64,000 nt of DNA, from NCBI GenBank assembly GCA_029856155.1, contig JAHQWL010000055.1, positions 32,001 through 96,000 of the forward strand, written 5' to 3'. Shown piece after piece: positions 31,692 to 64,000 of this stretch (the first letter of the stretch is position 1; the number at the start of each line of letters is the position of its first letter). The notes under the pieces are model-generated. The model saw only the letters and a program-made list of their open reading frames with translations. It was not told the origin of the DNA and ran no database searches. The translations under genes and the position numbers were made by a program. The stretch is from Promethearchaeia archaeon (GTDB lineage: Archaea; Asgardarchaeota; Lokiarchaeia; Sigyniarchaeales; SOKP01).

Positions 31692-32519
31692 TTATTTTCC
31701 TTGAAATTTTGGAGATCTCTTTTCTAGGAATGCTGTAATTCCTTCTCTGACATCTTGTGATGTAGTATTCAAAGCATATCCCCAATGCTCAAATTGTAGT
31801 CCCACATTCAATGGTACTTGAGTCCCATATTGAATACACTTTTTAATAACGAAAAGTGCATTTGTAGCAGAATTTCCGATCTGAAAGGCTTTCTCATGAA
31901 CAAATTCTTCAAACTTATCATCATCAACTAAAAAGGAAATAAATCCCCAATCATTCATCTGTTCAGCAGTAAAATGTTCACCAAAATACATCATTCGATT
32001 AACTCTCATTTTGCCGATCTGTCTTATCATCCGTTGAGTACCCCCATTGGCAGGAAAAATACCTCTTCGAATTTCAGGGAAGCCAAATTCTGATCGTCTT
32101 GATGCAATAACTATATCGCAAACTAGTACTAATTCTAATCCACCCCCAAGAGCATAACCATCGACAGCTGCAATTAAAGGTTTTGGAAATGCTTCAATTA
32201 AATTATAATAATTGTGCCTTATATACATGGCATGGCTACGATGTCTAAGGTTTTTAGGATCAAGTCGGGTATCTCCTCTTGCAGAAAGATCCGCACCGGC
32301 AGAGAAAGCAGGCTTTTTAGTGAATTCTCTAGTTCCACGTATAATTACACAACGAACACTTTTGTCTACTTCTACTGTTTCTAATGCTTCAGCAATTTCT
32401 TTAAGTGTTTGATTCTGAAGAGCATTCAATTTATCGGGACGAATTATTGATACAACAGCATAATTCCCCTCCTCAACTTTTTCAATTTTTACATGTTGAA
32501 ACTTTTTTTCTTCACTCAT
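31692..32519 (-). CDS. Enoyl-CoA hydratase (crotonase)
   Basis: KLNAL, AFSAGADL, GGGLEL and FPEI (both catalytic Glu present), GGTQR. Confidence 0.9.
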   Translation of the reverse strand: MSEEKKFQHVKIEKVEEGNYAVVSIIRPDKLNALQNQTLKEIAEALETVEVDKSVRCVIIRGTREFTKKPAFSAGADLSARGDTRLDPKNLRHRSHAMYIRHNYYNLIEAFPKPLIAAVDGYALGGGLELVLVCDIVIASRRSEFGFPEIRRGIFPANGGTQRMIRQIGKMRVNRMMYFGEHFTAEQMNDWGFISFLVDDDKFEEFVHEKAFQIGNSATNALFVIKKCIQYGTQVPLNVGLQFEHWGYALNTTSQDVREGITAFLEKRSPKFQGK

Positions 32520-53507: not shown

Positions 53508-55256
53508 ATGAAAATGAAGCGAGAGTTACGGATTGAAAAACGTTATTTGAACTTTCCTGTTAAACACGTTAAATACGGAACAAAAAAAAGTTTAATACAC
53601 TTCATTATTGATGGTAAACTCGTACGTGAACTTGAAGTTTCACTGGCAATAGACGAACCTGATTTCTGGGTGTTTCTTGATGTTTCTGAATTTAAAGGTA
53701 AAAAAGCAACTTTACAAATCAAAAAGGAAAATGAAGCATTCAATAAAATTTATCAGGCTGACACATTTCCTGGAGAAGAAAACCTCTACAAAGAGCGCCT
53801 AAGACCTCAGTTCCATTTCTCAACACGTCGAGGATGGAACAACGACCCAAATGGTCTCGTCTATCATGACGGAGAATATCATTTGTTTTACCAGCATAAT
53901 CCTTACGGATGGGATTATGGTTCTGATGCCAATAAAGCTTGGGGTCATGCAATAAGCACTGACTTGGTACACTGGAAAGAAATAGGTGATGCAATTTATC
54001 CAGATAACCTAGGTGGAATATACTCTGGTTCAGCAGTTGTTGATAAGCTTAATACTACGGATTTTCAAAGTAGTGACGAAAAACCAATAATATGTATCTA
54101 TACTTCCGCTGGTGGTAAAACCCCGTGGTCAAAAGACAAGCCTTTTACCCAATCTATTGCATTTAGCAACGATAGGGGTAGAACTTTTACCAAATATAGT
54201 GGAAATCCTGTTCAAGATCTCATTGAACCAATGAATCGCGATCCAAAAGTTATTTGGCATGAACCATCAAATCAATGGGTAATTGTGTTATACTTAGAAG
54301 AAAGTGTTATGGGATTTTTCACATCCAAGGACCTTAAATCCTGGAAACTTCAAAGTAAATATGGAAGAGAAAATCTTCACGAATGCCCGGAATTATTCCA
54401 ATTAGCTATTGATGGAAATCAACAGAACAAAAAATGGATTTTATATGCTGGTAATGGTCGTTACGACATAGGACAATTCGATGGGAAGAAATTTATTCCC
54501 GAAACTAAAGAGATTGAGTTTTGCTATGGTAATTGTTTCTATGCATCACAAACTTTTAACAATGTTCCTGAAGAAGATGGTAGACGTATTCAAATGGCAT
54601 GGGGATTAAGTCCTATGCCAGATATGCCATTTAATCAACAGATGCTCTTTCCCGTTGAACTCACGCTAAGAACTACAGAAGATGGACTGAGAATGTTTGC
54701 TCAACCTATAGATGAAATTAAGAATATTTACGGCAAGAACTGGATATATCAAGAAAAAATTATCGAGGAAGGTCACCATTCAATTATGGAAGAAAATGTT
54801 GATTATGGCTTATACGATATTTCAGTCGAGTTTGAATTTGGGAGTGCCGAAAGATTTGGACTTTTAATTAAAAATATACAAATTACCTACGATATCAATG
54901 AGCAAAAGCTCTATTGTCAAGAACGTTATGCGCCATTAAAACCCATGGATGGTAGAATTAAACTCAGAATCCTTGTTGATCGCACAACATTGGAGATTTT
55001 CGCCAATGATGGCCAAATTTATATGCCGGTCCGTACATCTATTAAACTCTCAGATTTTTCCGAGGACTTTTCAAAATGGGGAACAGATTTTAACATTTCA
55101 GAATTTGTTGAACTATATCCACACAAAATCAATTATATAGTGTCCTATTTTAAACCTATCATTATAGAAAAAAACAATATTTTAGCTTTTAGCGAAGGTG
55201 GAGAAACTAAGCTAGCCAAAATGGAAATTTATGAGCTAAACTCAATTTGGTATTAA
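53508..55256 (+). CDS. GH32 levanase/beta-fructofuranosidase, no signal peptide
   Basis: WNNDPNG, WGHA, YSGSAV, RDPKV, ECP catalytic motifs. Confidence 0.93.
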   Translation: MKMKRELRIEKRYLNFPVKHVKYGTKKSLIHFIIDGKLVRELEVSLAIDEPDFWVFLDVSEFKGKKATLQIKKENEAFNKIYQADTFPGEENLYKERLRPQFHFSTRRGWNNDPNGLVYHDGEYHLFYQHNPYGWDYGSDANKAWGHAISTDLVHWKEIGDAIYPDNLGGIYSGSAVVDKLNTTDFQSSDEKPIICIYTSAGGKTPWSKDKPFTQSIAFSNDRGRTFTKYSGNPVQDLIEPMNRDPKVIWHEPSNQWVIVLYLEESVMGFFTSKDLKSWKLQSKYGRENLHECPELFQLAIDGNQQNKKWILYAGNGRYDIGQFDGKKFIPETKEIEFCYGNCFYASQTFNNVPEEDGRRIQMAWGLSPMPDMPFNQQMLFPVELTLRTTEDGLRMFAQPIDEIKNIYGKNWIYQEKIIEEGHHSIMEENVDYGLYDISVEFEFGSAERFGLLIKNIQITYDINEQKLYCQERYAPLKPMDGRIKLRILVDRTTLEIFANDGQIYMPVRTSIKLSDFSEDFSKWGTDFNISEFVELYPHKINYIVSYFKPIIIEKNNILAFSEGGETKLAKMEIYELNSIWY

Positions 55257-55291: not shown

Positions 55292-56986
55292 TTAATCCAT
55301 TCCTTCTCTGTCTTTTACTCCATATGGTGGATTAACACACCAGATATAATGGCCTTCATCGATTTTTATTTGATGGGGTGACTCAAATTCGCATTCTGGT
55401 GTTCGATTATCTGATACACACCGAGGATTAAAAGTACATCCTGGTGGTGGATCAATTGGGCTCGGAACTTCGCCATCTATAACATATTTTATATCTTGAT
55501 CAAAAGGATCTATTTCAGAGTGACTCTTTAGGAGTGCTTGAGTATAGGGATGGGCTGGATTTAAAAAGATTTGATCAGTTTCCCCAATCTCAACAACCTT
55601 ACCTAGATACATTACAGCAACTCTATCCGCAATATGATTCACAACGGCTAAATTATGTGTTATAAACAAGAAACCATATCCATATTCCTCCTGTAAGTCT
55701 ATAAGGAGGTTTAAGATTTGTGCTTGTACAGACACATCAAGAGCTGATGTGGGCTCATCAAGGACAACTAATTCTGGATTACAAGCAAGTGCTCTTGCTA
55801 TAATAATTCTTTGCTTTTGCCCCCCTGAAAACTCGTGAGGATAACGATCCATGTGTTCTCGTTTTAATGAAACCTGTTTCAATAGCCGCAAAACATGTCT
55901 TCTGATTTTCATTTTATCGGTAATAGCAAGCAAATTCTTAAGCGGTTCTGCTATAATATCAGTAACTTTTAAACGTGGATTTAAAGAAGCATCAGGATCC
56001 TGGAAAACCATTTGAATTTTTTGTCTGAAATAACTTGAAAATTCGTTCGGGATAGGTTCGTCATGAAATAATATTTCTCCATCTTCTATATCTAGTAATC
56101 CTAAAATTGTGTTTGCGATAGTTGTTTTCCCACATCCACTTTCTCCAACTAACCCTAATGTTTCACCTGTCTTGATCTCAAATGATATACTATCAACCGC
56201 TTTTACTTCACCAATTTTCCTTTTAAGTACCCCTTTAAGTAGAGGATAATATACTTTAAGGTTTGTAACTTTTAATAAAGGCTTACCCTTTTCTAAAACT
56301 TTTAGATCTCTGATCTCCTGAATTGGTATGGTTTTATAAGCGATTAATTTGGCTATAGCTATAGTTATAATAGAAATAATAATACTTATTAAGGAATCTA
56401 CAATAAAATAATCAAAGAACATTCTTTGTTGAATGATAAACATTAACATTAGACAAAGAGGGCCTGGTATTACACCGACAATAACGACAACTCTTCTTAA
56501 CTTCACCAATTGAATTTTATCTCCCCAACTTGCTATAAATCCTGATACACCAAAAATAACTAGAAGGAACAGAACAAAAGTAAATTTTGAACCATCCAAT
56601 TTATCATCACCTGTAATTAGAAAAATATCTATAATATCAAAAAGAGAAGATATATAAATGGTAGCAATGAATAAAATAATTTGAGCGAAGGCTACAATTT
56701 CTAAAGATCTTAACCACTTCTTTTTTTGAATTATTATTAAGATACCTAATCCAATAATAGTATTGATAAAAATCATGAGAAGGTCAGTGAACAGGTTTTT
56801 ACCGATCAATGAATAAATGGTTAACCCCACAACCATGCCTATAACAAACCAGGTTATATTTATAATCAACGCTGATAAAAAGGATTTATCCCATCTTCTA
56901 AATTTGATATGCCTATTTATATAAAACGTACCCACTAATATTTGTAATAGTTGAGTAGTAAACAATAATGTTATATTAACAGCCAT
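55292..56986 (-). CDS. oppF: Opp/Dpp ABC ATPase (OppF-like) fused to an N-terminal multi-TM domain
   Basis: GESGCGKT, QDP, YPHEFSGGQKQR, DEPTSALD, HPYT, C-terminal Cys motif; first ~220 aa hold about 7 hydrophobic helices. Confidence 0.9.
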   Translation of the reverse strand: MAVNITLLFTTQLLQILVGTFYINRHIKFRRWDKSFLSALIINITWFVIGMVVGLTIYSLIGKNLFTDLLMIFINTIIGLGILIIIQKKKWLRSLEIVAFAQIILFIATIYISSLFDIIDIFLITGDDKLDGSKFTFVLFLLVIFGVSGFIASWGDKIQLVKLRRVVVIVGVIPGPLCLMLMFIIQQRMFFDYFIVDSLISIIISIITIAIAKLIAYKTIPIQEIRDLKVLEKGKPLLKVTNLKVYYPLLKGVLKRKIGEVKAVDSISFEIKTGETLGLVGESGCGKTTIANTILGLLDIEDGEILFHDEPIPNEFSSYFRQKIQMVFQDPDASLNPRLKVTDIIAEPLKNLLAITDKMKIRRHVLRLLKQVSLKREHMDRYPHEFSGGQKQRIIIARALACNPELVVLDEPTSALDVSVQAQILNLLIDLQEEYGYGFLFITHNLAVVNHIADRVAVMYLGKVVEIGETDQIFLNPAHPYTQALLKSHSEIDPFDQDIKYVIDGEVPSPIDPPPGCTFNPRCVSDNRTPECEFESPHQIKIDEGHYIWCVNPPYGVKDREGMD

Positions 56987-57036
56987 TTTGACTTATCCTT
57001 CCATTTTTATATTATTTAAAATAAGTTTTATTGACT

Positions 57037-58920
57037 TTATTCCTCATGTTTTTTTATAGAAATTTCTGCTAATTCTTTAAAATCATCATCATAAAGATGA
57101 CAGGCTACAAAATAATCTGGTTCAAGCTCTATACTTTTTGGTATTTTCGAATCGCAAGGTTCGAAGCAGTACTTGCAACGTGGATGAAATCTGCATCCAG
57201 AAGGTGGATAAATCAGGTTTGGTACCGTTCCTTTTATAACTTCAAGATGACGTCTCTTTTTTCCTACAACGGGAACAGAGGCTATGAGACTTCTTGTGTA
57301 GGGATGATAGGGTTTTATGAATAGTTTCTGAATACTCCCATTTTCGACTATAAAACCTGAATACATCACAGCAACCCTATCACACATTTTGGAAATTATT
57401 CCTAGATCATGTGTGATAAACAACATTGAAGTATTAAATTTACTCTTAAGTTCTTTCATTAACTTTAGAATTTGATTTTGAATGGTTACGTCCAGTGCTG
57501 TTGTAGGTTCATCCGCGATTAAAAGTTTTGGGCTGCAAGCAAGACCCATAGCGATCTGAACCCTTTGTCGCATTCCTCCACTCAATTCATGTGGGTATAA
57601 ATTAAAAATCAAATTTGGGAATGGGATATTTAAATCCTGTAAAAGTCGCTCACTCCACTCTCGCGCAACAGTAAAAATACTTTTATCTTGTTTAGATGCT
57701 TCTATCAGCAATTCATTTTCCATATGCAAGAGAAAGACTTCAGTGATTTGAGCCCCAATTCTAAAAACGGGATTAAGAGAATTAAGGGGATCCTGAAAAA
57801 TCATGGTAATATCTTTCCCACGATATTCCAATACTTCAGATATCGATTTTTGTATCAAATCTTCTCCTTCAAAGATGACTTTACCTTTTTCTATTTTTCC
57901 TGGAGGGCGTACTAATTGTAGAATAGATAATGCTGTAACGGATTTACCACAACCAGTTTCTCCTACAAGACCAAGAGTTTCTCCCTCATTAATTTTAAAA
58001 GAAACACCTTCAACAGCTTTTACAATTCCCTCCTCTGTGTAGAAATAAGTTGTAAGATCTTGAACTTCTAAAATAACATTATTCCCAACACCCCTTATTT
58101 CATCACTTTGCTTTTTCTCATGTAGTTCAATGACTTTCTGAAGTTTTACTTCACTCCTTTCAAGAGCTTGTGGTTTAAATATCTTCTTTAATGTAATAAA
58201 GTAAACAGTGACATATAGTGCATTAACGACTATAATTAAAATACGAATATCTTGCTCGTATAGAATGATACCAAATAGTCTCTGTAAATATAGTTCAACA
58301 ATAATGAGCTGAATAGACCAAATTCCAAATGAGATAAGTCCACCAGTATATATGGCCTGCTTAAGCACGTTATCCGGAATCCGTGTCTCAATTGGCCGAG
58401 CTTTATTAACTGTAATTGTTATGATCATAGCAAAACCGATTACAAAAATAGCCCACAGAAAACCAAGATTGAATACATCAGGAATTTCCATAGGAATTTG
58501 GAGGAGAGGTATTGATAAAAAGATGGCTCCAACGATCCACGCTAGTATTATAAATTTAATATATAATCTCCTAAATTGTTCACTGATAATATTTTCCTCA
58601 TCATGCAATTTGTATTTCGCAAATCTCTTCAAAAAAATGGCGTGTAAGGGTAGAAATATTGTTGTCATTATAGCAAATAAAAATGCATCTGTAGTCAAGT
58701 ATCTGAATAAATAATACCCCTCAAAAATATAAAAATGTCCGAGAGATTCTAAAAGCAGACGAATACTTAATATTATCCCAAAAATAATTAGGGTGCTTAC
58801 ACCCGAACTATATCTATGAACCCTTTTAGAAATCCGAACTTCATCTCGGAGATTATTATTTAGAATGACAGCACTCAAATATAAAACCGAAGCTGCTACT
58901 AAAGCTTCAATTAATGACAT
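57037..58920 (-). CDS. oppD: Opp/Dpp ABC ATPase (OppD-like) fused to an N-terminal multi-TM domain
   Basis: GETGCGKS, FQDP, YPHELSGGMRQR, DEPTTALD, GCRFHPRC...CH; first ~245 aa hold about 7 hydrophobic helices. Confidence 0.9.
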   Translation of the reverse strand: MSLIEALVAASVLYLSAVILNNNLRDEVRISKRVHRYSSGVSTLIIFGIILSIRLLLESLGHFYIFEGYYLFRYLTTDAFLFAIMTTIFLPLHAIFLKRFAKYKLHDEENIISEQFRRLYIKFIILAWIVGAIFLSIPLLQIPMEIPDVFNLGFLWAIFVIGFAMIITITVNKARPIETRIPDNVLKQAIYTGGLISFGIWSIQLIIVELYLQRLFGIILYEQDIRILIIVVNALYVTVYFITLKKIFKPQALERSEVKLQKVIELHEKKQSDEIRGVGNNVILEVQDLTTYFYTEEGIVKAVEGVSFKINEGETLGLVGETGCGKSVTALSILQLVRPPGKIEKGKVIFEGEDLIQKSISEVLEYRGKDITMIFQDPLNSLNPVFRIGAQITEVFLLHMENELLIEASKQDKSIFTVAREWSERLLQDLNIPFPNLIFNLYPHELSGGMRQRVQIAMGLACSPKLLIADEPTTALDVTIQNQILKLMKELKSKFNTSMLFITHDLGIISKMCDRVAVMYSGFIVENGSIQKLFIKPYHPYTRSLIASVPVVGKKRRHLEVIKGTVPNLIYPPSGCRFHPRCKYCFEPCDSKIPKSIELEPDYFVACHLYDDDFKELAEISIKKHEE

Positions 58921-58976
58921 TCCAAAATTTAATTCAATACCAACTTGAAATACTATTCCTATGATTATAGTTTACC

Positions 58977-59984
58977 TCATTTTTGTATGGTTAATCGTGG
59001 ATCTAAAGCGTCCCTTACTCCATCCCCCATTAACATAAACCCAACAGCAGTTATTCCGATAAAAATACCCGGCCATATTGCTGCCGCTATGGCAGTCATT
59101 GGGCGTCCTAAAGTCCAATTTATATCAATTCCCCAAGTTGCAATGTCAGGGTCTCCAAAACCTAGAAAAGCAAGCCCCGCTAAACCTAAAACTGTGCCCG
59201 CAGCTCCACCGAAGAAAGTTATTATCATAGGTGATATGGAGTTTGGTACAATATGTTTAAACATGACTTTAAATTTAAGAGCACCACCTGTTTTTGCTGC
59301 CTTTACATAATCAAATTGTTTTACTTGTAAAACCAATGATCGCATAAACCTAATATTATATGGAATGCCAAGTACCCCATAAATTACTAGAGTAGTTAAT
59401 AAATCTTGACCAATTATAGGAGCGAGAATGATTATTAAAATTAACATTGGAAATGAATACCATAAATCAGCAAAACGCATCATAAGATAATCAACAATAC
59501 CACCAAAATAGGCTGAAATTGTTCCTAAAATTAGACCACCCCCCATCGATATAATTACTGGTATAAACGCCATTCCTATTGAAGTTCGAGCACCCCATAT
59601 TATTCGTGCATATACATCATACCCATACAATGTTGTCCCTAGTGGATGTTCCGGGCTAGGATCATCGAAAGGAACGCCGTCTGGGGGAATGTATGGGGGT
59701 ACTACCTCTTGTAGCGGAATATCGGTTAAAAATGGCCCATAAACTGCTAAAATTACAATATATAAAACCATCAAGAACCCAATAATTGTTAAAGGGGTAA
59801 GAAAACGACGGAATACCCGCCTTTTTGATTTTATTTTTTCAATTTCATTTTCGTAAGCGGAGAATTCTGGATCACGCCAAGCGGGAAGTAGATAAAATTT
59901 CAATAGGCGTACCCACTTCTTACCTCCACTTACAGAAAAATCTTTATAATCTCTTTCTTCTATTGTTATATCTTGTTCAGTCAT
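58977..59984 (-). CDS. oppC: Opp/Dpp ABC permease
   Basis: PSPEHPLGT...GYD, EAA-like YVKAAKTGGA, HIVPN, GDGVRDALDPR. Confidence 0.92.
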   Translation of the reverse strand: MTEQDITIEERDYKDFSVSGGKKWVRLLKFYLLPAWRDPEFSAYENEIEKIKSKRRVFRRFLTPLTIIGFLMVLYIVILAVYGPFLTDIPLQEVVPPYIPPDGVPFDDPSPEHPLGTTLYGYDVYARIIWGARTSIGMAFIPVIISMGGGLILGTISAYFGGIVDYLMMRFADLWYSFPMLILIIILAPIIGQDLLTTLVIYGVLGIPYNIRFMRSLVLQVKQFDYVKAAKTGGALKFKVMFKHIVPNSISPMIITFFGGAAGTVLGLAGLAFLGFGDPDIATWGIDINWTLGRPMTAIAAAIWPGIFIGITAVGFMLMGDGVRDALDPRLTIQK

Positions 59985-60013
59985 ATTTCAAATCTTTTGT
60001 TTTAATTATATCT

Positions 60014-61120
60014 TTAATTATATGTTATCCTCGGATCAATAATGGTATACATTACATCAGCAACCAATAGTCCAATGAGTGTAATTATTACAGCAAATAC
60101 CATTAAGCCATTAATGACCAAGTAATCACCTGCTGTAATTGCATTGAGAAACCACCAACCAAATCCTTTGTAATCAAAAGTCATCTCAATGAAAAGTGAT
60201 CCTAAAATTGCTCCTGCAGTACCCCCAATGATAAGATTACTCGTGGGGATGAGGGCATTCCGGAGTGCATGTTTATTAATAACATCGTTTTCTTCAACTC
60301 CTTTTGCACGAGCAGTTCTGATATAATCGCTATCTAATACTTCTAACATGCTTGAGCGCGTTAGTCTAGATATCCCTGCTAAGGACAAAAAAACCATACA
60401 TATGGAGGGAAGAATTAAATGCAAAATTGTATCAAAAAGAAACTTTTGATCATTATAAATAATGGCATCGAGAATTCGGAAGCCTGTGGTAAATCCACCT
60501 GCAGCATTTGGTAAAAAAAGCCCCGGTGAATTCGTTAACTGAACAGGTATAGCAAGTTGACCATTAGTAAATTCGGTAATATAAACACCAAAACCAATTT
60601 GAAGCAAGATAGCAATCCAAAAAACTGGAAAACCCGCGCCAAGTATCGTAATGAAACGAATTATATTATCTTTCACTTTATCTTTGTGTCTTGCTGCTGT
60701 AGCTCCAAGTTTGACAGCGATAATTGGAGTCAAAAAAATAGGGACTATCATTAATTCAATAGTCTTAGGAAAGATTTCAGCAATAAATTCAAGGACAGGT
60801 TTTCCTTCATTAAGTGTGTAAGATTCACCCCATTCTCCTATGAAAAAGTTTCTTAAATAATTAAAGAGTTGAACGTACCAAGGATCATTATATCCCACTC
60901 TTTCCATTTCCGCTGCAAGTAGTTCTGGGTTATCAGCTCCAACTCTAAATAGTATAGGGCTTACTAGCATCATCCTCGCTAATAGCCATGTAATTATTAA
61001 AGAAAGTATTAACATCGGAAACACAATAATAATTCGCTTAATGATATATTTTATCATGTTAGTGTGTTTTTTTCCCTTAGATTTCTTGAATTTGATTTCC
61101 TTTTTAGAGTTCTTTTCCAT
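60014..61120 (-). CDS. oppB: Opp/Dpp ABC permease
   Basis: YIIKR, HLILP, RSSMLEVLDSDYIRTARAKG, HALRNALIP, DPRI. Confidence 0.92.
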   Translation of the reverse strand: MEKNSKKEIKFKKSKGKKHTNMIKYIIKRIIIVFPMLILSLIITWLLARMMLVSPILFRVGADNPELLAAEMERVGYNDPWYVQLFNYLRNFFIGEWGESYTLNEGKPVLEFIAEIFPKTIELMIVPIFLTPIIAVKLGATAARHKDKVKDNIIRFITILGAGFPVFWIAILLQIGFGVYITEFTNGQLAIPVQLTNSPGLFLPNAAGGFTTGFRILDAIIYNDQKFLFDTILHLILPSICMVFLSLAGISRLTRSSMLEVLDSDYIRTARAKGVEENDVINKHALRNALIPTSNLIIGGTAGAILGSLFIEMTFDYKGFGWWFLNAITAGDYLVINGLMVFAVIITLIGLLVADVMYTIIDPRITYN

Positions 61121-61158
61121 TTTTATTCTTCACTTCTTTTATTATAATCCTTTTTTAC

Positions 61159-61653
61159 TCAAATTTTTCTTCTCTTTTTTATAATTTGTTTAAATTTCAT
61201 CCCACTTAAAGCCCCAGTAAACGTACACCCATACAAGATTAAAATATTTAAATAACCCTCTCCATGAGCAAATTGTAAGATGAACGGCTCTGCAGAGAAT
61301 CCAAACATTATCCAATAAAACAAAAAACCTTCAGCTATTAATAATGGTACCATCCACAATGAGGCTTTTATCCCATAATGTGGAATTTCTTCCTTATAGG
61401 TTAATAAAAAACATATGAAAAATAACAATAAAATGGGCAAGTAGAAAGTTTGTGGATATACTTTATAGGTCCAAAACAATATTGTAGGATCCATTTCAGT
61501 ATAAGGGATCGATACCGATCTACTACTAATCAAGAGTATATTCGCGACAATTCCGAAATAACCCAATAAAACAACTATATATGCAAAAATAATTGACCCT
61601 TGTCTACCCCAGTCAATTTGGAAATGTCCCTTTATTTCTGTATCATTTGTCAA
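61159..61653 (-). CDS. Hypothetical ~4-TM membrane protein, first gene of the opp operon
   Basis: Four hydrophobic segments and a basic C-terminus; 38 bp from oppB; non-ATG start. Confidence 0.7.
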   Translation of the reverse strand: MTNDTEIKGHFQIDWGRQGSIIFAYIVVLLGYFGIVANILLISSRSVSIPYTEMDPTILFWTYKVYPQTFYLPILLLFFICFLLTYKEEIPHYGIKASLWMVPLLIAEGFLFYWIMFGFSAEPFILQFAHGEGYLNILILYGCTFTGALSGMKFKQIIKKRRKI

Positions 61654-61798
61654 AAGATATTCCTCTTTTTTATTGCTATTGTTATTAATTGTTCTTTGTG
61701 TTTTCCGATATATTCCGAAATTAAATATCTTACAATTAATCTACGTTATTTCTAAGAAATATTGAAATATTTAAATATCTTAATTACGTAACCTTATT

Positions 61799-61819
61799 TA
61801 AATTTACGATGTAAATTTA
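61799..61819. promoter_or_regulatory. 9-3-9 inverted repeat in the divergent opp promoter
   Basis: taaatttac-gat-gtaaattta. Confidence 0.45.
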
Positions 61820-61846
61820 TCTAAAAAAATGGAGAATAAATAAAAA

Positions 61847-64000
61847 ATGCAAAAATTCTCAACTAAATTAATTTTTATGCTTTTAATTAGCTCGCTTATT
61901 TTACCTTTCTTCCCTGTAAACACTAAAGCTGCCTCCGTTACAATACCTACATTAAAAATAGGATTGAAAAGCGGTGGAGTGGGAAGCTGGGACGGAATTA
62001 TAGCAACATCAGGATTCCATGCTTCTTATGGTCAAAATGCTCTTGAAGGGTTCGTGCAGATGCATCCTGGGTGGTCAGGTGATCCCGAAGATCTTCTCCC
62101 TGTGCTCGCAACGGAATTGGAGATTCATGAATGGCCAGAGGAACCTAATTCTTATGGCTGGATCAATAAAGGTGGTGTTAGGGCAATAGACTTAACTTTG
62201 CGAGAGGGTGTTACCTTCCATGATGGTTCCGCTTGGAACGCAACGGTGGCGAAATGGAATATTGATCGTAATATGGTGATGACTGGAAATATAACGGGTT
62301 CAATAACAATTTATGATATTGGAGTTACTAAGGCGAGAACTGCTTATTGGGTAAATGCCGAGGATTGGGTAGATTATGAAACTGCTACGTGGAATATATC
62401 CCAATTTATTGGAAAACCGGGTACATACGAGGGATTTGGATCTTCTACAGATGATGATATGATTGGGCGATATAGCAGAATTAAAAATGTGACCATACTC
62501 GAAAATCAAGAATTTGGAGGAAAAATTCGAATTTACTATAATGATTGGGGTGGTGCAGGCTCGCAGTTGCTATATGGTCTTGACTTTATGATGATTTCAA
62601 TGGACGCGTATAAAGACTATTTCGATCGACCAATTTATGGTTTGGGACAAGACCCTAACTTTCCACAACCATCGGGTCTTACAGGAGACCCGGACGATTA
62701 TCCTACTACCGGATTTCCTGGGCACTTGATTGGAACGGGACCTTATATATTTATCCAGCAAGATGAATTGATATTTCAAGGAGGTCGTATGATAAGAAAT
62801 CCAAATTGGTGGAATGCTACTGCTGCTGCTGCTGATGGTTGGCATCAAGTTGAAGAACTTGCTTTCGTTTACTTCTATTCTGACGATCTTACCGGAAGAA
62901 CTATAGGAATGGTTACTGAGACCATTGATATGGCTTATGATGCCCTATGGGCTGGAAATCTTATCTATGATGAAATGGAAGCTGATCCCGACATTAGATA
63001 TATGGATTTGGGTTATGAAGAAACTCGTACTTTTATAACATTGAATAGCATTAATGAAACATATTGGAAATATTGGGCAGATAATCCATCAAGAACTCCC
63101 TCAGAAATTAAGTCGAGGACTGAATTGCATGACATTGATTCGAGTGGAAGAGTCCATACTGACGGAATTGATAGGGCTCTTAGGAAAGCGTTAAGTTATG
63201 CATTTGATTATGATACTTTTATTAACGTCGTCAAACAAGGACGTGCAATACGATCTGCAGGTTTTCTTGGACATCAAAGTCCATATTACAATCCAAATAT
63301 ATCTATTCCTTACCGAAATCTTACAATCGCACGAAAAACGCTAATTAATGATCCTTTCTGGGGCCCAAAAGTGGCGGCTAGAAAGTTAGATATCAATAAC
63401 GCAACTGCTGATTGGATTTGGGTAGCGAACAATGATCCTATCTTTGAATTTAAGCTCATGTGGGAGGAGTCTACTGTACCCCAGGCGGACTTATTCTCGA
63501 CGAACATTAAAGAAATTGGGATTAAGTTGGACACTCCAGATGGGAAACGTGATAACGACTTAAAGTTACACCCAAATATCTTACAAGTAATGATTTTCCG
63601 TATTGAGGAATTCCCAGCGTTCACGTATCATGGAGTCCCTACTAACTGGCCTGATGACAGCAAGAACTCTGTACCAGTCCTTGAATATTATTATAAGAGT
63701 CCTGGACTTCCGTATGTCAACGGTTCGGGGCTAGCTTGGCCTGGTGTAGGTTATCTTGGGGGACAATTCTTTAACATAGGATTTCATTATAATGCAACCG
63801 TTGATAAATGGATAGAGAAACTTTGGTTTTCAGACAGCACTAGAACGCAAGCGCTAATGAATAATATGACCAGACACGTTCAAACCTATCACTACCCGGA
63901 GATCTTTATTTCTAATAACAAGTTCGGAATTGCAATGGATAAAGATTGGAAATTTGCTAACTTTCGGGATTATATCCATGCATTCGTAAAATATCTTCCT
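61847..64000 (+). CDS. oppA: Opp/Dpp substrate-binding protein (family 5), partial, runs off window end
   Basis: Not in ORF track (no stop in window). ATG at 61847 gives MQKFSTKLIFMLLISSLILPFFP signal peptide, then PVLAT, LREGVTFHDGS..NA...KWNIDR, IGTGPY, LRKALSYAFDY. Confidence 0.88.
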   Translation, partial: MQKFSTKLIFMLLISSLILPFFPVNTKAASVTIPTLKIGLKSGGVGSWDGIIATSGFHASYGQNALEGFVQMHPGWSGDPEDLLPVLATELEIHEWPEEPNSYGWINKGGVRAIDLTLREGVTFHDGSAWNATVAKWNIDRNMVMTGNITGSITIYDIGVTKARTAYWVNAEDWVDYETATWNISQFIGKPGTYEGFGSSTDDDMIGRYSRIKNVTILENQEFGGKIRIYYNDWGGAGSQLLYGLDFMMISMDAYKDYFDRPIYGLGQDPNFPQPSGLTGDPDDYPTTGFPGHLIGTGPYIFIQQDELIFQGGRMIRNPNWWNATAAAADGWHQVEELAFVYFYSDDLTGRTIGMVTETIDMAYDALWAGNLIYDEMEADPDIRYMDLGYEETRTFITLNSINETYWKYWADNPSRTPSEIKSRTELHDIDSSGRVHTDGIDRALRKALSYAFDYDTFINVVKQGRAIRSAGFLGHQSPYYNPNISIPYRNLTIARKTLINDPFWGPKVAARKLDINNATADWIWVANNDPIFEFKLMWEESTVPQADLFSTNIKEIGIKLDTPDGKRDNDLKLHPNILQVMIFRIEEFPAFTYHGVPTNWPDDSKNSVPVLEYYYKSPGLPYVNGSGLAWPGVGYLGGQFFNIGFHYNATVDKWIEKLWFSDSTRTQALMNNMTRHVQTYHYPEIFISNNKFGIAMDKDWKFANFRDYIHAFVKYLP

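Follow-up and report, generated by a model that had tools for sequence, protein, structure and literature searches.

Membrane domains on both ATPases of an Opp/Dpp-family ABC importer in an order of Asgard archaea

To our knowledge, the ATPases of binding-protein-dependent ATP-binding cassette (ABC) importers have been described as soluble subunits. The EAA loops of type I importer permeases fill both grooves of the nucleotide-binding domains (NBDs), and membership of the PepT family implies a peptide, nickel or opine type of system, with archaeal members importing sugars as well. Extra N-terminal helix bundles are familiar as the TMD0 of TAP1/2, SUR/ABCC and ABCB6, which lies off the translocation pathway, varies between paralogues and serves as an interaction hub. 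In the solved Opp/Dpp systems (PepT, TC 3.A.1.5; E. coli DppABCDF, PMC12136057, and M. tuberculosis OppABCD), soluble ATPases of ~330 amino acids (aa) form part of a set of five gene products. Here we describe an operon that departs from this plan, located in a stretch of 64,000 nucleotides, hereafter the window, from a Promethearchaeia (Lokiarchaeial) archaeon of marine sediment, belonging to the Asgard order Sigyniarchaeales (assembly GCA_029856155.1, 4.1 Mb, 30% GC, 104 contigs; positions 32,001 to 96,000 of contig JAHQWL010000055.1). Each of its ATPases carries, ahead of the NBD, a membrane domain with seven predicted transmembrane (TM) helices, and a sixth gene encodes a small membrane protein with four, making about 18 added helices in all. 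"Opp/Dpp" is used throughout as a family name, not as proof of a peptide substrate. A full-text literature search yielded no description of membrane domains on Opp-class NBDs or of a sixth membrane subunit, and the combination of membrane-embedded Opp-class ATPases with a sixth subunit is thus a variant that we have not found described, built on a core of a known kind. On balance we lean, by a modest measure, towards regarding the added parts as peripheral accessory membrane modules around a canonical OppBC pore, a location and role that we infer from the evidence below.

The added membrane domains and the reality of the fusions

The original prediction, made from the letters of the window, had described OppD (627 aa) and OppF (564 aa) as continuous open reading frames (ORFs), each with about seven hydrophobic helices ahead of an intact NBD, in an operon led by a 164-aa membrane protein and containing complete OppB and OppC. 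All of this was borne out. The five minus-strand ORFs are separated by 29-56 bp and are subdivided as follows, the sub-modules of OppF being delimited by hidden Markov model (HMM) dissection and alignment:

61159..61653, minus strand: small 4-TM protein gene, 164 aa, TTG start; first gene of the operon, without Pfam or NCBIfam match
60014..61120, minus strand: OppB-type permease, 368 aa; BPD_transp_1 and its N-terminal domain
58977..59984, minus strand: OppC-type permease, 335 aa; BPD_transp_1
57037..58920, minus strand: OppD, whole gene, 627 aa; continuous ORF
58186..58920, minus strand: predicted N-terminal 7-TM domain of OppD, aa 1-245; from hydropathy, AlphaFold2, loop charges and alignment conservation
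58081..58185, minus strand: predicted helical linker of OppD, aa 246-280, charged and poorly conserved, after the invariant P250; from AlphaFold2 and alignment
57037..58080, minus strand: NBD and oligo_HPY domain of OppD, aa 281-627; from Pfam and NCBIfam, with all ATPase motifs
55292..56986, minus strand: OppF, whole gene, 564 aa; continuous ORF
56597..56986, minus strand: optional N-module of OppF, TM1-4, aa 1-130
56336..56596, minus strand: core 3-TM module of OppF, aa 131-217, with the cytoplasmic motif WGDKIQLV
55292..56335, minus strand: linker (aa 218-236) and NBD with oligo_HPY domain (aa 237-564) of OppF; all ATPase motifs

Kyte-Doolittle hydropathy yields seven hydrophobic segments in the N-terminal region of each ATPase and three to four in the small protein. 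The mean number of K+R per loop across the OppD alignment (4.2, 0.4, 5.9, 0.5, 4.9, 1.5, 5.8) alternates strongly, and since K/R-rich and K/R-poor loops follow each other in this way, the N-terminal domains of OppD and OppF (the D and F domains) fit a 7-TM, N-out/C-in topology that would leave the NBDs in the cytoplasm; by its loop charges, the small protein fits a 4-TM, N-in/C-in arrangement. AlphaFold2 models built with family alignments, with a mean predicted local distance difference test (pLDDT) of ~76 and a predicted TM-score (pTM) of 0.65-0.67, place seven long helices in the N-terminal domain of OppD, the last of which would run on as a long charged helix (residues 225-277) toward the NBD, and predict long helices over the same segments in OppF, with the sixth split in two. 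Between the OppD and OppF domains no similarity could be detected (BLASTP E 1.6; hhalign probability <1%), as had been claimed from inspection, and the small protein, the D domain, the F domain and the F sub-modules likewise showed no mutual similarity, with hhalign probabilities <1%.

Conservation is concentrated in a few places. Within the D domain, TM6 (GGLISFGIWSIQLIIVELYL), the NKxRPIExRIP loop on the cytoplasmic side and an outer QDIR turn are kept best, and no residues other than R180 and W201 stay invariant throughout the order. The small protein has conserved cytoplasmic motifs (IDWGRQG and TYKE(D/E)IPHYGIKASLW), and its invariant residues are mostly cytoplasmic (RQ in the tail; E88, Y93, G94, S98, W100 and P103 in the loop), with few in the helices or the outer loop; the motifs that are best kept in the small protein and in the F core lie on the cytoplasmic side, as does one of those best kept in the D domain. 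In-frame residues just 5′ of its TTG start (INNNSNKKEEYL, 61654-61692, minus strand) align with the N-termini of homologues of ~177 aa, and the true start of the small gene may therefore lie about 13 codons upstream, at an isoleucine codon, or may have shifted.

These features bear on the possibility that the N-terminal 7-TM bundle is a membrane sensor or regulator, which would respond to a ligand, the lipid state or the membrane potential and signal through the linker to the NBD, either gating ATP hydrolysis or reporting nutrient status as a transceptor. The seven-span N-out/C-in topology, the covalent connection to the NBD, the conserved polar TM6 and the outer-face residues D148, D224 and R226, conserved within the archaeal family of the window (f1), would all suit such a role. 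Those outer-face residues, however, cease to be invariant once the sister family (f2) is added, the linker of ~30 residues is charged, poorly conserved and variable in length and would make a poor transmitter, TM number and module order differ between orthologues, as described below, and there is no similarity to a known sensor family. We consider a sensor unlikely, though it deserves to be kept in view.

The fusions themselves recur well beyond this genome. Used on their own, the N-terminal domains retrieve fused relatives with E values from 1e-149 down, far beyond chance: the D domain search returned 167 clusters, the complete ones being 595-872 aa long and containing ABC_tran and oligo_HPY, and the F domain search returned 57 fusions with ABC_tran and oligo_HPY. 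The named D-domain matches mostly bear submitters' Asgard labels (Promethearchaeota, Loki-, Hod-, Heimdall-, Thor- and Odinarchaeota), one being labelled a bacterium. Full-length genome matches to the D domain all lie in open frames of 631-1069 aa with no internal stop, and dozens of independent assemblies share N-terminal regions at 33-91% identity, in every case in frame with the NBD; because it is the amino-acid sequence that is conserved, this shows, from the comparative side, that the N-terminal regions are translated. Contigs of other samples cross both junctions unchanged and without stop codons: among DNA contigs of marine-sediment runs from four studies, two of which supplied the bridging pieces, one piece free of differences spans the OppD junction (57985-58324) and another the OppF junction (55970-56364). 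A misassembly, or functional proteins that start internally at the NBD and leave the upstream frame separate or dead, would be compatible with start sites that are predicted; set against the conserved in-frame regions and the bridging contigs, we find such an artefact hardly credible. Candidates for a free-standing D domain were rejected, as these short database entries stop within the NBD or run out in frameshift-like tails and look like contig-end or frameshift fragments. Out of 1.84 billion representatives, a D-domain profile picked up no more than 64 clusters at an E threshold of 0.001, and in none of these is the domain clearly free-standing.

Searches for known relatives agreed with the earlier claim that the domains belong to no characterised family. 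For OppD residues 1-280, OppF residues 1-230 and the small protein over its full length, Pfam and NCBIfam offer no matching family, and the D-domain profile has no match among PDB sequences at E up to 10. Foldseek against the PDB gave best E values of 0.39 and 0.68 and TM-scores of ~0.2 for the two models, whose pLDDT is ~76, and a wide VIA-align search with the OppD domain reached Z 7.9 at best, with partial helical overlap only. In the ESM Atlas, the D domain found unnamed clusters only, with scores <=0.83, and the search with the small protein led back to its own Asgard clusters alone, likewise unnamed. Several weak candidates were set aside. The match of WbaP (8t53_A) to the OppF N-module (Z 10.8, rmsd 3.2 over 117 residues) lies below the level trusted for helical bundles. 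Lax Pfam scans of alignment members gave MFS_1 in three of 16 D domains (best E 3.5e-5, the window member scoring 12.9 bits against a cut-off of 33.4) and DUF2070 in seven of 18 F domains (best E 0.016), which we take for hydrophobic noise or at most a lead, and for the small protein the same kind of scan gave no consistent match.

The same searches speak to the idea of an enzymatic or processing role for the membrane domains, in which they might, for instance, work as an intramembrane hydrolase or transferase whose target is either the substrate or the anchored binding protein. This role would draw on the conserved polar residues in or near the membrane and on the sorting-signal-like tail of the binding protein described below. 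No catalytic-looking signature is present in the D domain across the order, though, R180 and W201 being all that stays invariant, and no Pfam, PDB or fold match to a membrane enzyme was obtained, and we judge this explanation very improbable.

The canonical transporter core

Judged by family matches and motifs, the system is a type I ABC importer of the PepT/Opp-Dpp family, with a core that is complete and canonical. It shares with the characterised members (the E. coli and M. tuberculosis systems named above) a family-5 binding protein, two EAA-loop permeases, two oligo_HPY ATPases and four cysteines in each of the latter. OppB and OppC match PF00528 with E values of 1e-37 and 2e-26, their best NCBIfam models being Opp4B and Opp4C, and both have kept the EAA-type cytoplasmic loop, with RTARAKG and AAKTGGA conserved in alignments of relatives; each shows five of the six helices expected for the family at the Kyte-Doolittle threshold used. 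The ATPases contain ABC_tran (PF00005) and oligo_HPY (PF08352) above the curated Pfam cut-offs, at residues 304-474 and 525-589 in OppD and 265-414 and 465-524 in OppF, and their best NCBIfam matches are the OppD and DppF-type subfamily models, below the equivalog cut-offs. Walker A, Q-loop, signature, Walker B with the catalytic Glu, and H-loop are intact in both.

The C-terminal parts of the ATPases also hold the cysteines expected of this family. In E. coli, C284/290/297/315 of DppD and C293/299/306/323 of DppF are [4Fe-4S] ligands (PMC12136057). Cys576/582/589/607 of OppD have a spacing (0, +6, +13, +31) identical to that of DppD, and Cys517/523/532/550 of OppF are near in spacing to those of DppF, making them putative [4Fe-4S] ligands.

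The binding-protein gene lies on the other side of a divergent intergenic region:

61654..61846, no strand: AT-rich intergenic region, 193 bp, between the small gene and the binding-protein gene, defined by sequence and spacing; presumably holds the promoters of both divergent genes
61847..64000, plus strand, with 129 further bases beyond the window end: family-5 substrate-binding protein gene, divergent from the operon; SBP_bac_5; 760 aa in total

The protein matches PF00496 (SBP_bac_5) above the cut-off, with E 1.3e-19, and is very divergent by NCBIfam, where NikA-type models match weakly at best. Its N-terminus bears a hydrophobic signal or anchor, 12 N-x-S/T sequons are present, and its C-terminus, spotted by eye, consists of IPGF, a helix and an RKRKR tail (...QIPGFETAPLLAIAIVTITGIGYSLNRKRKRAEI). 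The pattern IPG(F/Y), hydrophobic helix and K/R tail recurs in the binding proteins of 19 relatives (among L021-L038 and L044-L046), and looks like the cleaved PGF-CTERM sorting signal of archaeosortases; the PGF-CTERM model itself gave no NCBIfam match to the window binding protein at E 0.01 or better. We also considered whether the extra helices serve as a dock for the C-terminal anchor of the binding protein, and gave this up as the leading idea, as the tail resembles a cleaved signal and its presence does not track the N-terminal domains, two loci (L044 and L046) having the tail without the domains.

Variation and distribution of the operon

The gene order of the window, with the binding-protein gene divergent from small gene-OppB-OppC-OppD-OppF, recurs in most of 18 loci from the window's family and in three from the sister family; two related loci (L024 and L031) are without the small gene, and three are cut by contig ends. 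The 7-TM domain of OppD is found in all related loci of this kind (class 1). The 3-TM core of OppF, with its cytoplasmic WGDKxQLV, is present in 18/18 class-1 OppF proteins examined from f1 and in three from f2, preceded among orthologues by zero, one or four further helices (3, 4 or 7 TM). As the 3-TM core is universal and the 4-TM N-module optional, the 7-TM OppF of the window is an elaborated form. OppD varies too: in four loci it is 971-1058 aa long with ~14 helices, assembled from a full D domain, a partial D repeat, an F N-module (E 1e-15 to 1e-22) and the last D helix with the linker, so that its membrane domain spans from seven to ~15 TM among orthologous operons. Three loci (L032-L034) have extra helices in OppB proteins of 408-502 aa, and one of these (L034:1027-1752, plus strand) encodes a small protein that a two-helix insertion has brought to 6 TM, with a length of 241 aa; since the small protein of L034 and some OppB proteins are enlarged as well, the accretion of membrane helices affects several subunits.

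Such variability weighs against the proposal of a second translocation path, built from the N-terminal domains (and perhaps the small protein) and sharing the ATPase dimer, with OppD and OppF resembling a heterodimeric half-transporter that also energises OppBC. The order of membrane domain and NBD does mimic that of ABC half-transporters, in which two polypeptides likewise partner, and the F N-module inside long OppD means that membrane parts of D and F origin can share one polypeptide. Here, however, the NBDs belong to the Opp class, the membrane domains of the two ATPases are unrelated, unequal and variable, OppF having only 3 TM in many orthologous operons, no known ABC membrane-domain fold was matched (Foldseek, VIA), and a separate and complete permease pair is present, whose retained EAA-type loops would need both NBD grooves. 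For these reasons we regard a second path, one of the functions suggested in the original prediction, as quite improbable; the notion of an undescribed accessory module or scaffold from the same source is the part that we favour, on account of the variability of the modules.

A further contrast is provided by class-2 sister Opp operons of the same archaeal family (L040-L043), in which the genes follow one another as in the window and the small protein has a homologue at 24-34% identity. Their ATPases are without N-terminal membrane domains (OppD 407-441 aa, OppF 338-340 aa), and their binding protein is shorter and lacks the C-terminal tail. As these operons possess the small protein and none of the domains, the small protein cannot depend on the N-terminal domains. 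Two class-2 OppF proteins, from two genomes of one genus (G008 and G171), reach 535-588 aa through three to four hydrophobic segments inside the NBD (L040:8002-9609, plus strand; L041:7026-8792, minus strand); the segments follow the Walker A region and split ABC_tran in two in Pfam, and would represent a membrane insertion inside an ABC ATPase.

To follow the distribution, we surveyed 301 sampled Asgard genomes with a D profile that included the most divergent members. The D domain was found in 26 of them, comprising 19/68 genomes of the window's family, 4/7 of the sister family and two elsewhere, one match being strong and the other marginal; the fusion was present in every full-length relative found. 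Within the genus of the window, 10/21 other genomes contain it, and a genome may hold up to four copies of the operon, which, given this patchiness, is an accessory and sometimes multi-copy element. The small gene is commoner: it occurs in 57/301 Asgard genomes, all of the same order (52/68 and 4/7 in the two families and 21/21 in the genus) and in none of 226 other Asgard genomes, and its 269 homologous clusters are all hypothetical Asgard proteins. As a whole, the arrangement hardly extends beyond a single Asgard order, where its occurrence is patchy. The strong match from outside the order (G241:C79, L036, family f24, E 1e-104) sits on a 4.8-kb contig and is either a lateral transfer or a binning error. 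In the genome of the window itself (G000), a C-terminal OppF-like fragment is cut by a contig end at C44:188624-189031, outside the window, and for this reason a second, incompletely assembled Opp system is probably present there.

The role of the added modules and the genomic neighbourhood

With a canonical core that lacks no part, the default assumption is that OppDF powers import through OppBC. By family knowledge, the substrate would be delivered by the surface-anchored family-5 binding protein and cross through the ordinary OppB-OppC pore, with the OppD-OppF ATPase dimer docking on the EAA loops of OppB and OppC and powering transport. The 7-TM bundle on OppD, the 3-TM core with its optional 4-TM module on OppF and the separate 4-TM protein would all lie at the periphery of OppBC, where they would keep the ATPases permanently bound to the membrane and, through their conserved cytoplasmic loops, could aid assembly, stabilisation or regulation of the complex while forming no pathway of their own. 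The accessory-module reading is favoured because the added parts are unrelated to each other, variable in number and duplicated or moved between subunits, with few invariant residues and with their best motifs mostly cytoplasmic, and also because the small protein occurs in operons without N-terminal domains and OppB itself sometimes has extra helices.

The nearest parallel is the TMD0, which resembles these domains, by analogy, in being an extra and variable N-terminal bundle; it differs in preceding the core membrane domain of an exporter-type protein, whereas here the bundle precedes a linker and the NBD of an importer whose pore is formed by separate polypeptides. A modelled complex of OppB, OppC and the small protein scored 0.67, with both partner-replaced controls at 0.00 and the OppB-replaced control at 0.60; this last value left it short of the required mark, and we count it neither for nor against any reading.

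Several points weigh against the peripheral-module reading. TM6 of the D domain is strikingly conserved, with polar S202, Q204 and E209 that might form a binding or conduction site; seven helices go far beyond what tethering needs; the TMD0 likeness is an analogy only, no sequence or fold similarity having been found; and no RNA runs were listed among the matching sequencing runs. Bundles and small protein might instead constitute a working membrane device on the same ATPase cycle, which could serve as a second conduit, gate import by sensing a ligand or lipid, or act as a mechanotransmitting unit. We attach distinctly low probability to such a device; if it were real, it would be an ABC architecture of its own kind, in which the importer NBDs themselves are integral membrane proteins.

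Some 18 added helices have been conserved across an order of organisms for which the uptake of organic nutrients is central. Glycoproteomics of P. syntrophicum, a relative that has been cultured, lists ten top-ranked proteins, of which a family-5 binding protein both heads the ranking and is the most abundant (PMC11284389). The function of the modules would show how a textbook transporter becomes elaborated, and could reveal a principle of assembly or regulation particular to wall-less, protrusion-forming cells. Because the layout is also present in a closed genome from the sister family, the question may be within experimental reach.

The neighbours of the window operon are a GH32 hydrolase and beta-lactamase-like hydrolases. 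The GH32 gene, of the fructan or sucrose hydrolase type and with a DUF4980 N-terminus, adjoins the operon (53508-55256, plus strand); its counterpart in the closest relative (L021:14307-16025, minus strand) is 78% identical and stands there beside the binding-protein gene. In other relatives a sulfatase gene or genes for PFL-like glycyl-radical enzymes adjoin the operon. In seven of them such a glycyl-radical enzyme, ~815 aa long, is encoded directly 3′ of OppF (L022-L028; for example L027:3438-5885, minus strand), a neighbour that may hint at a non-peptide substrate.

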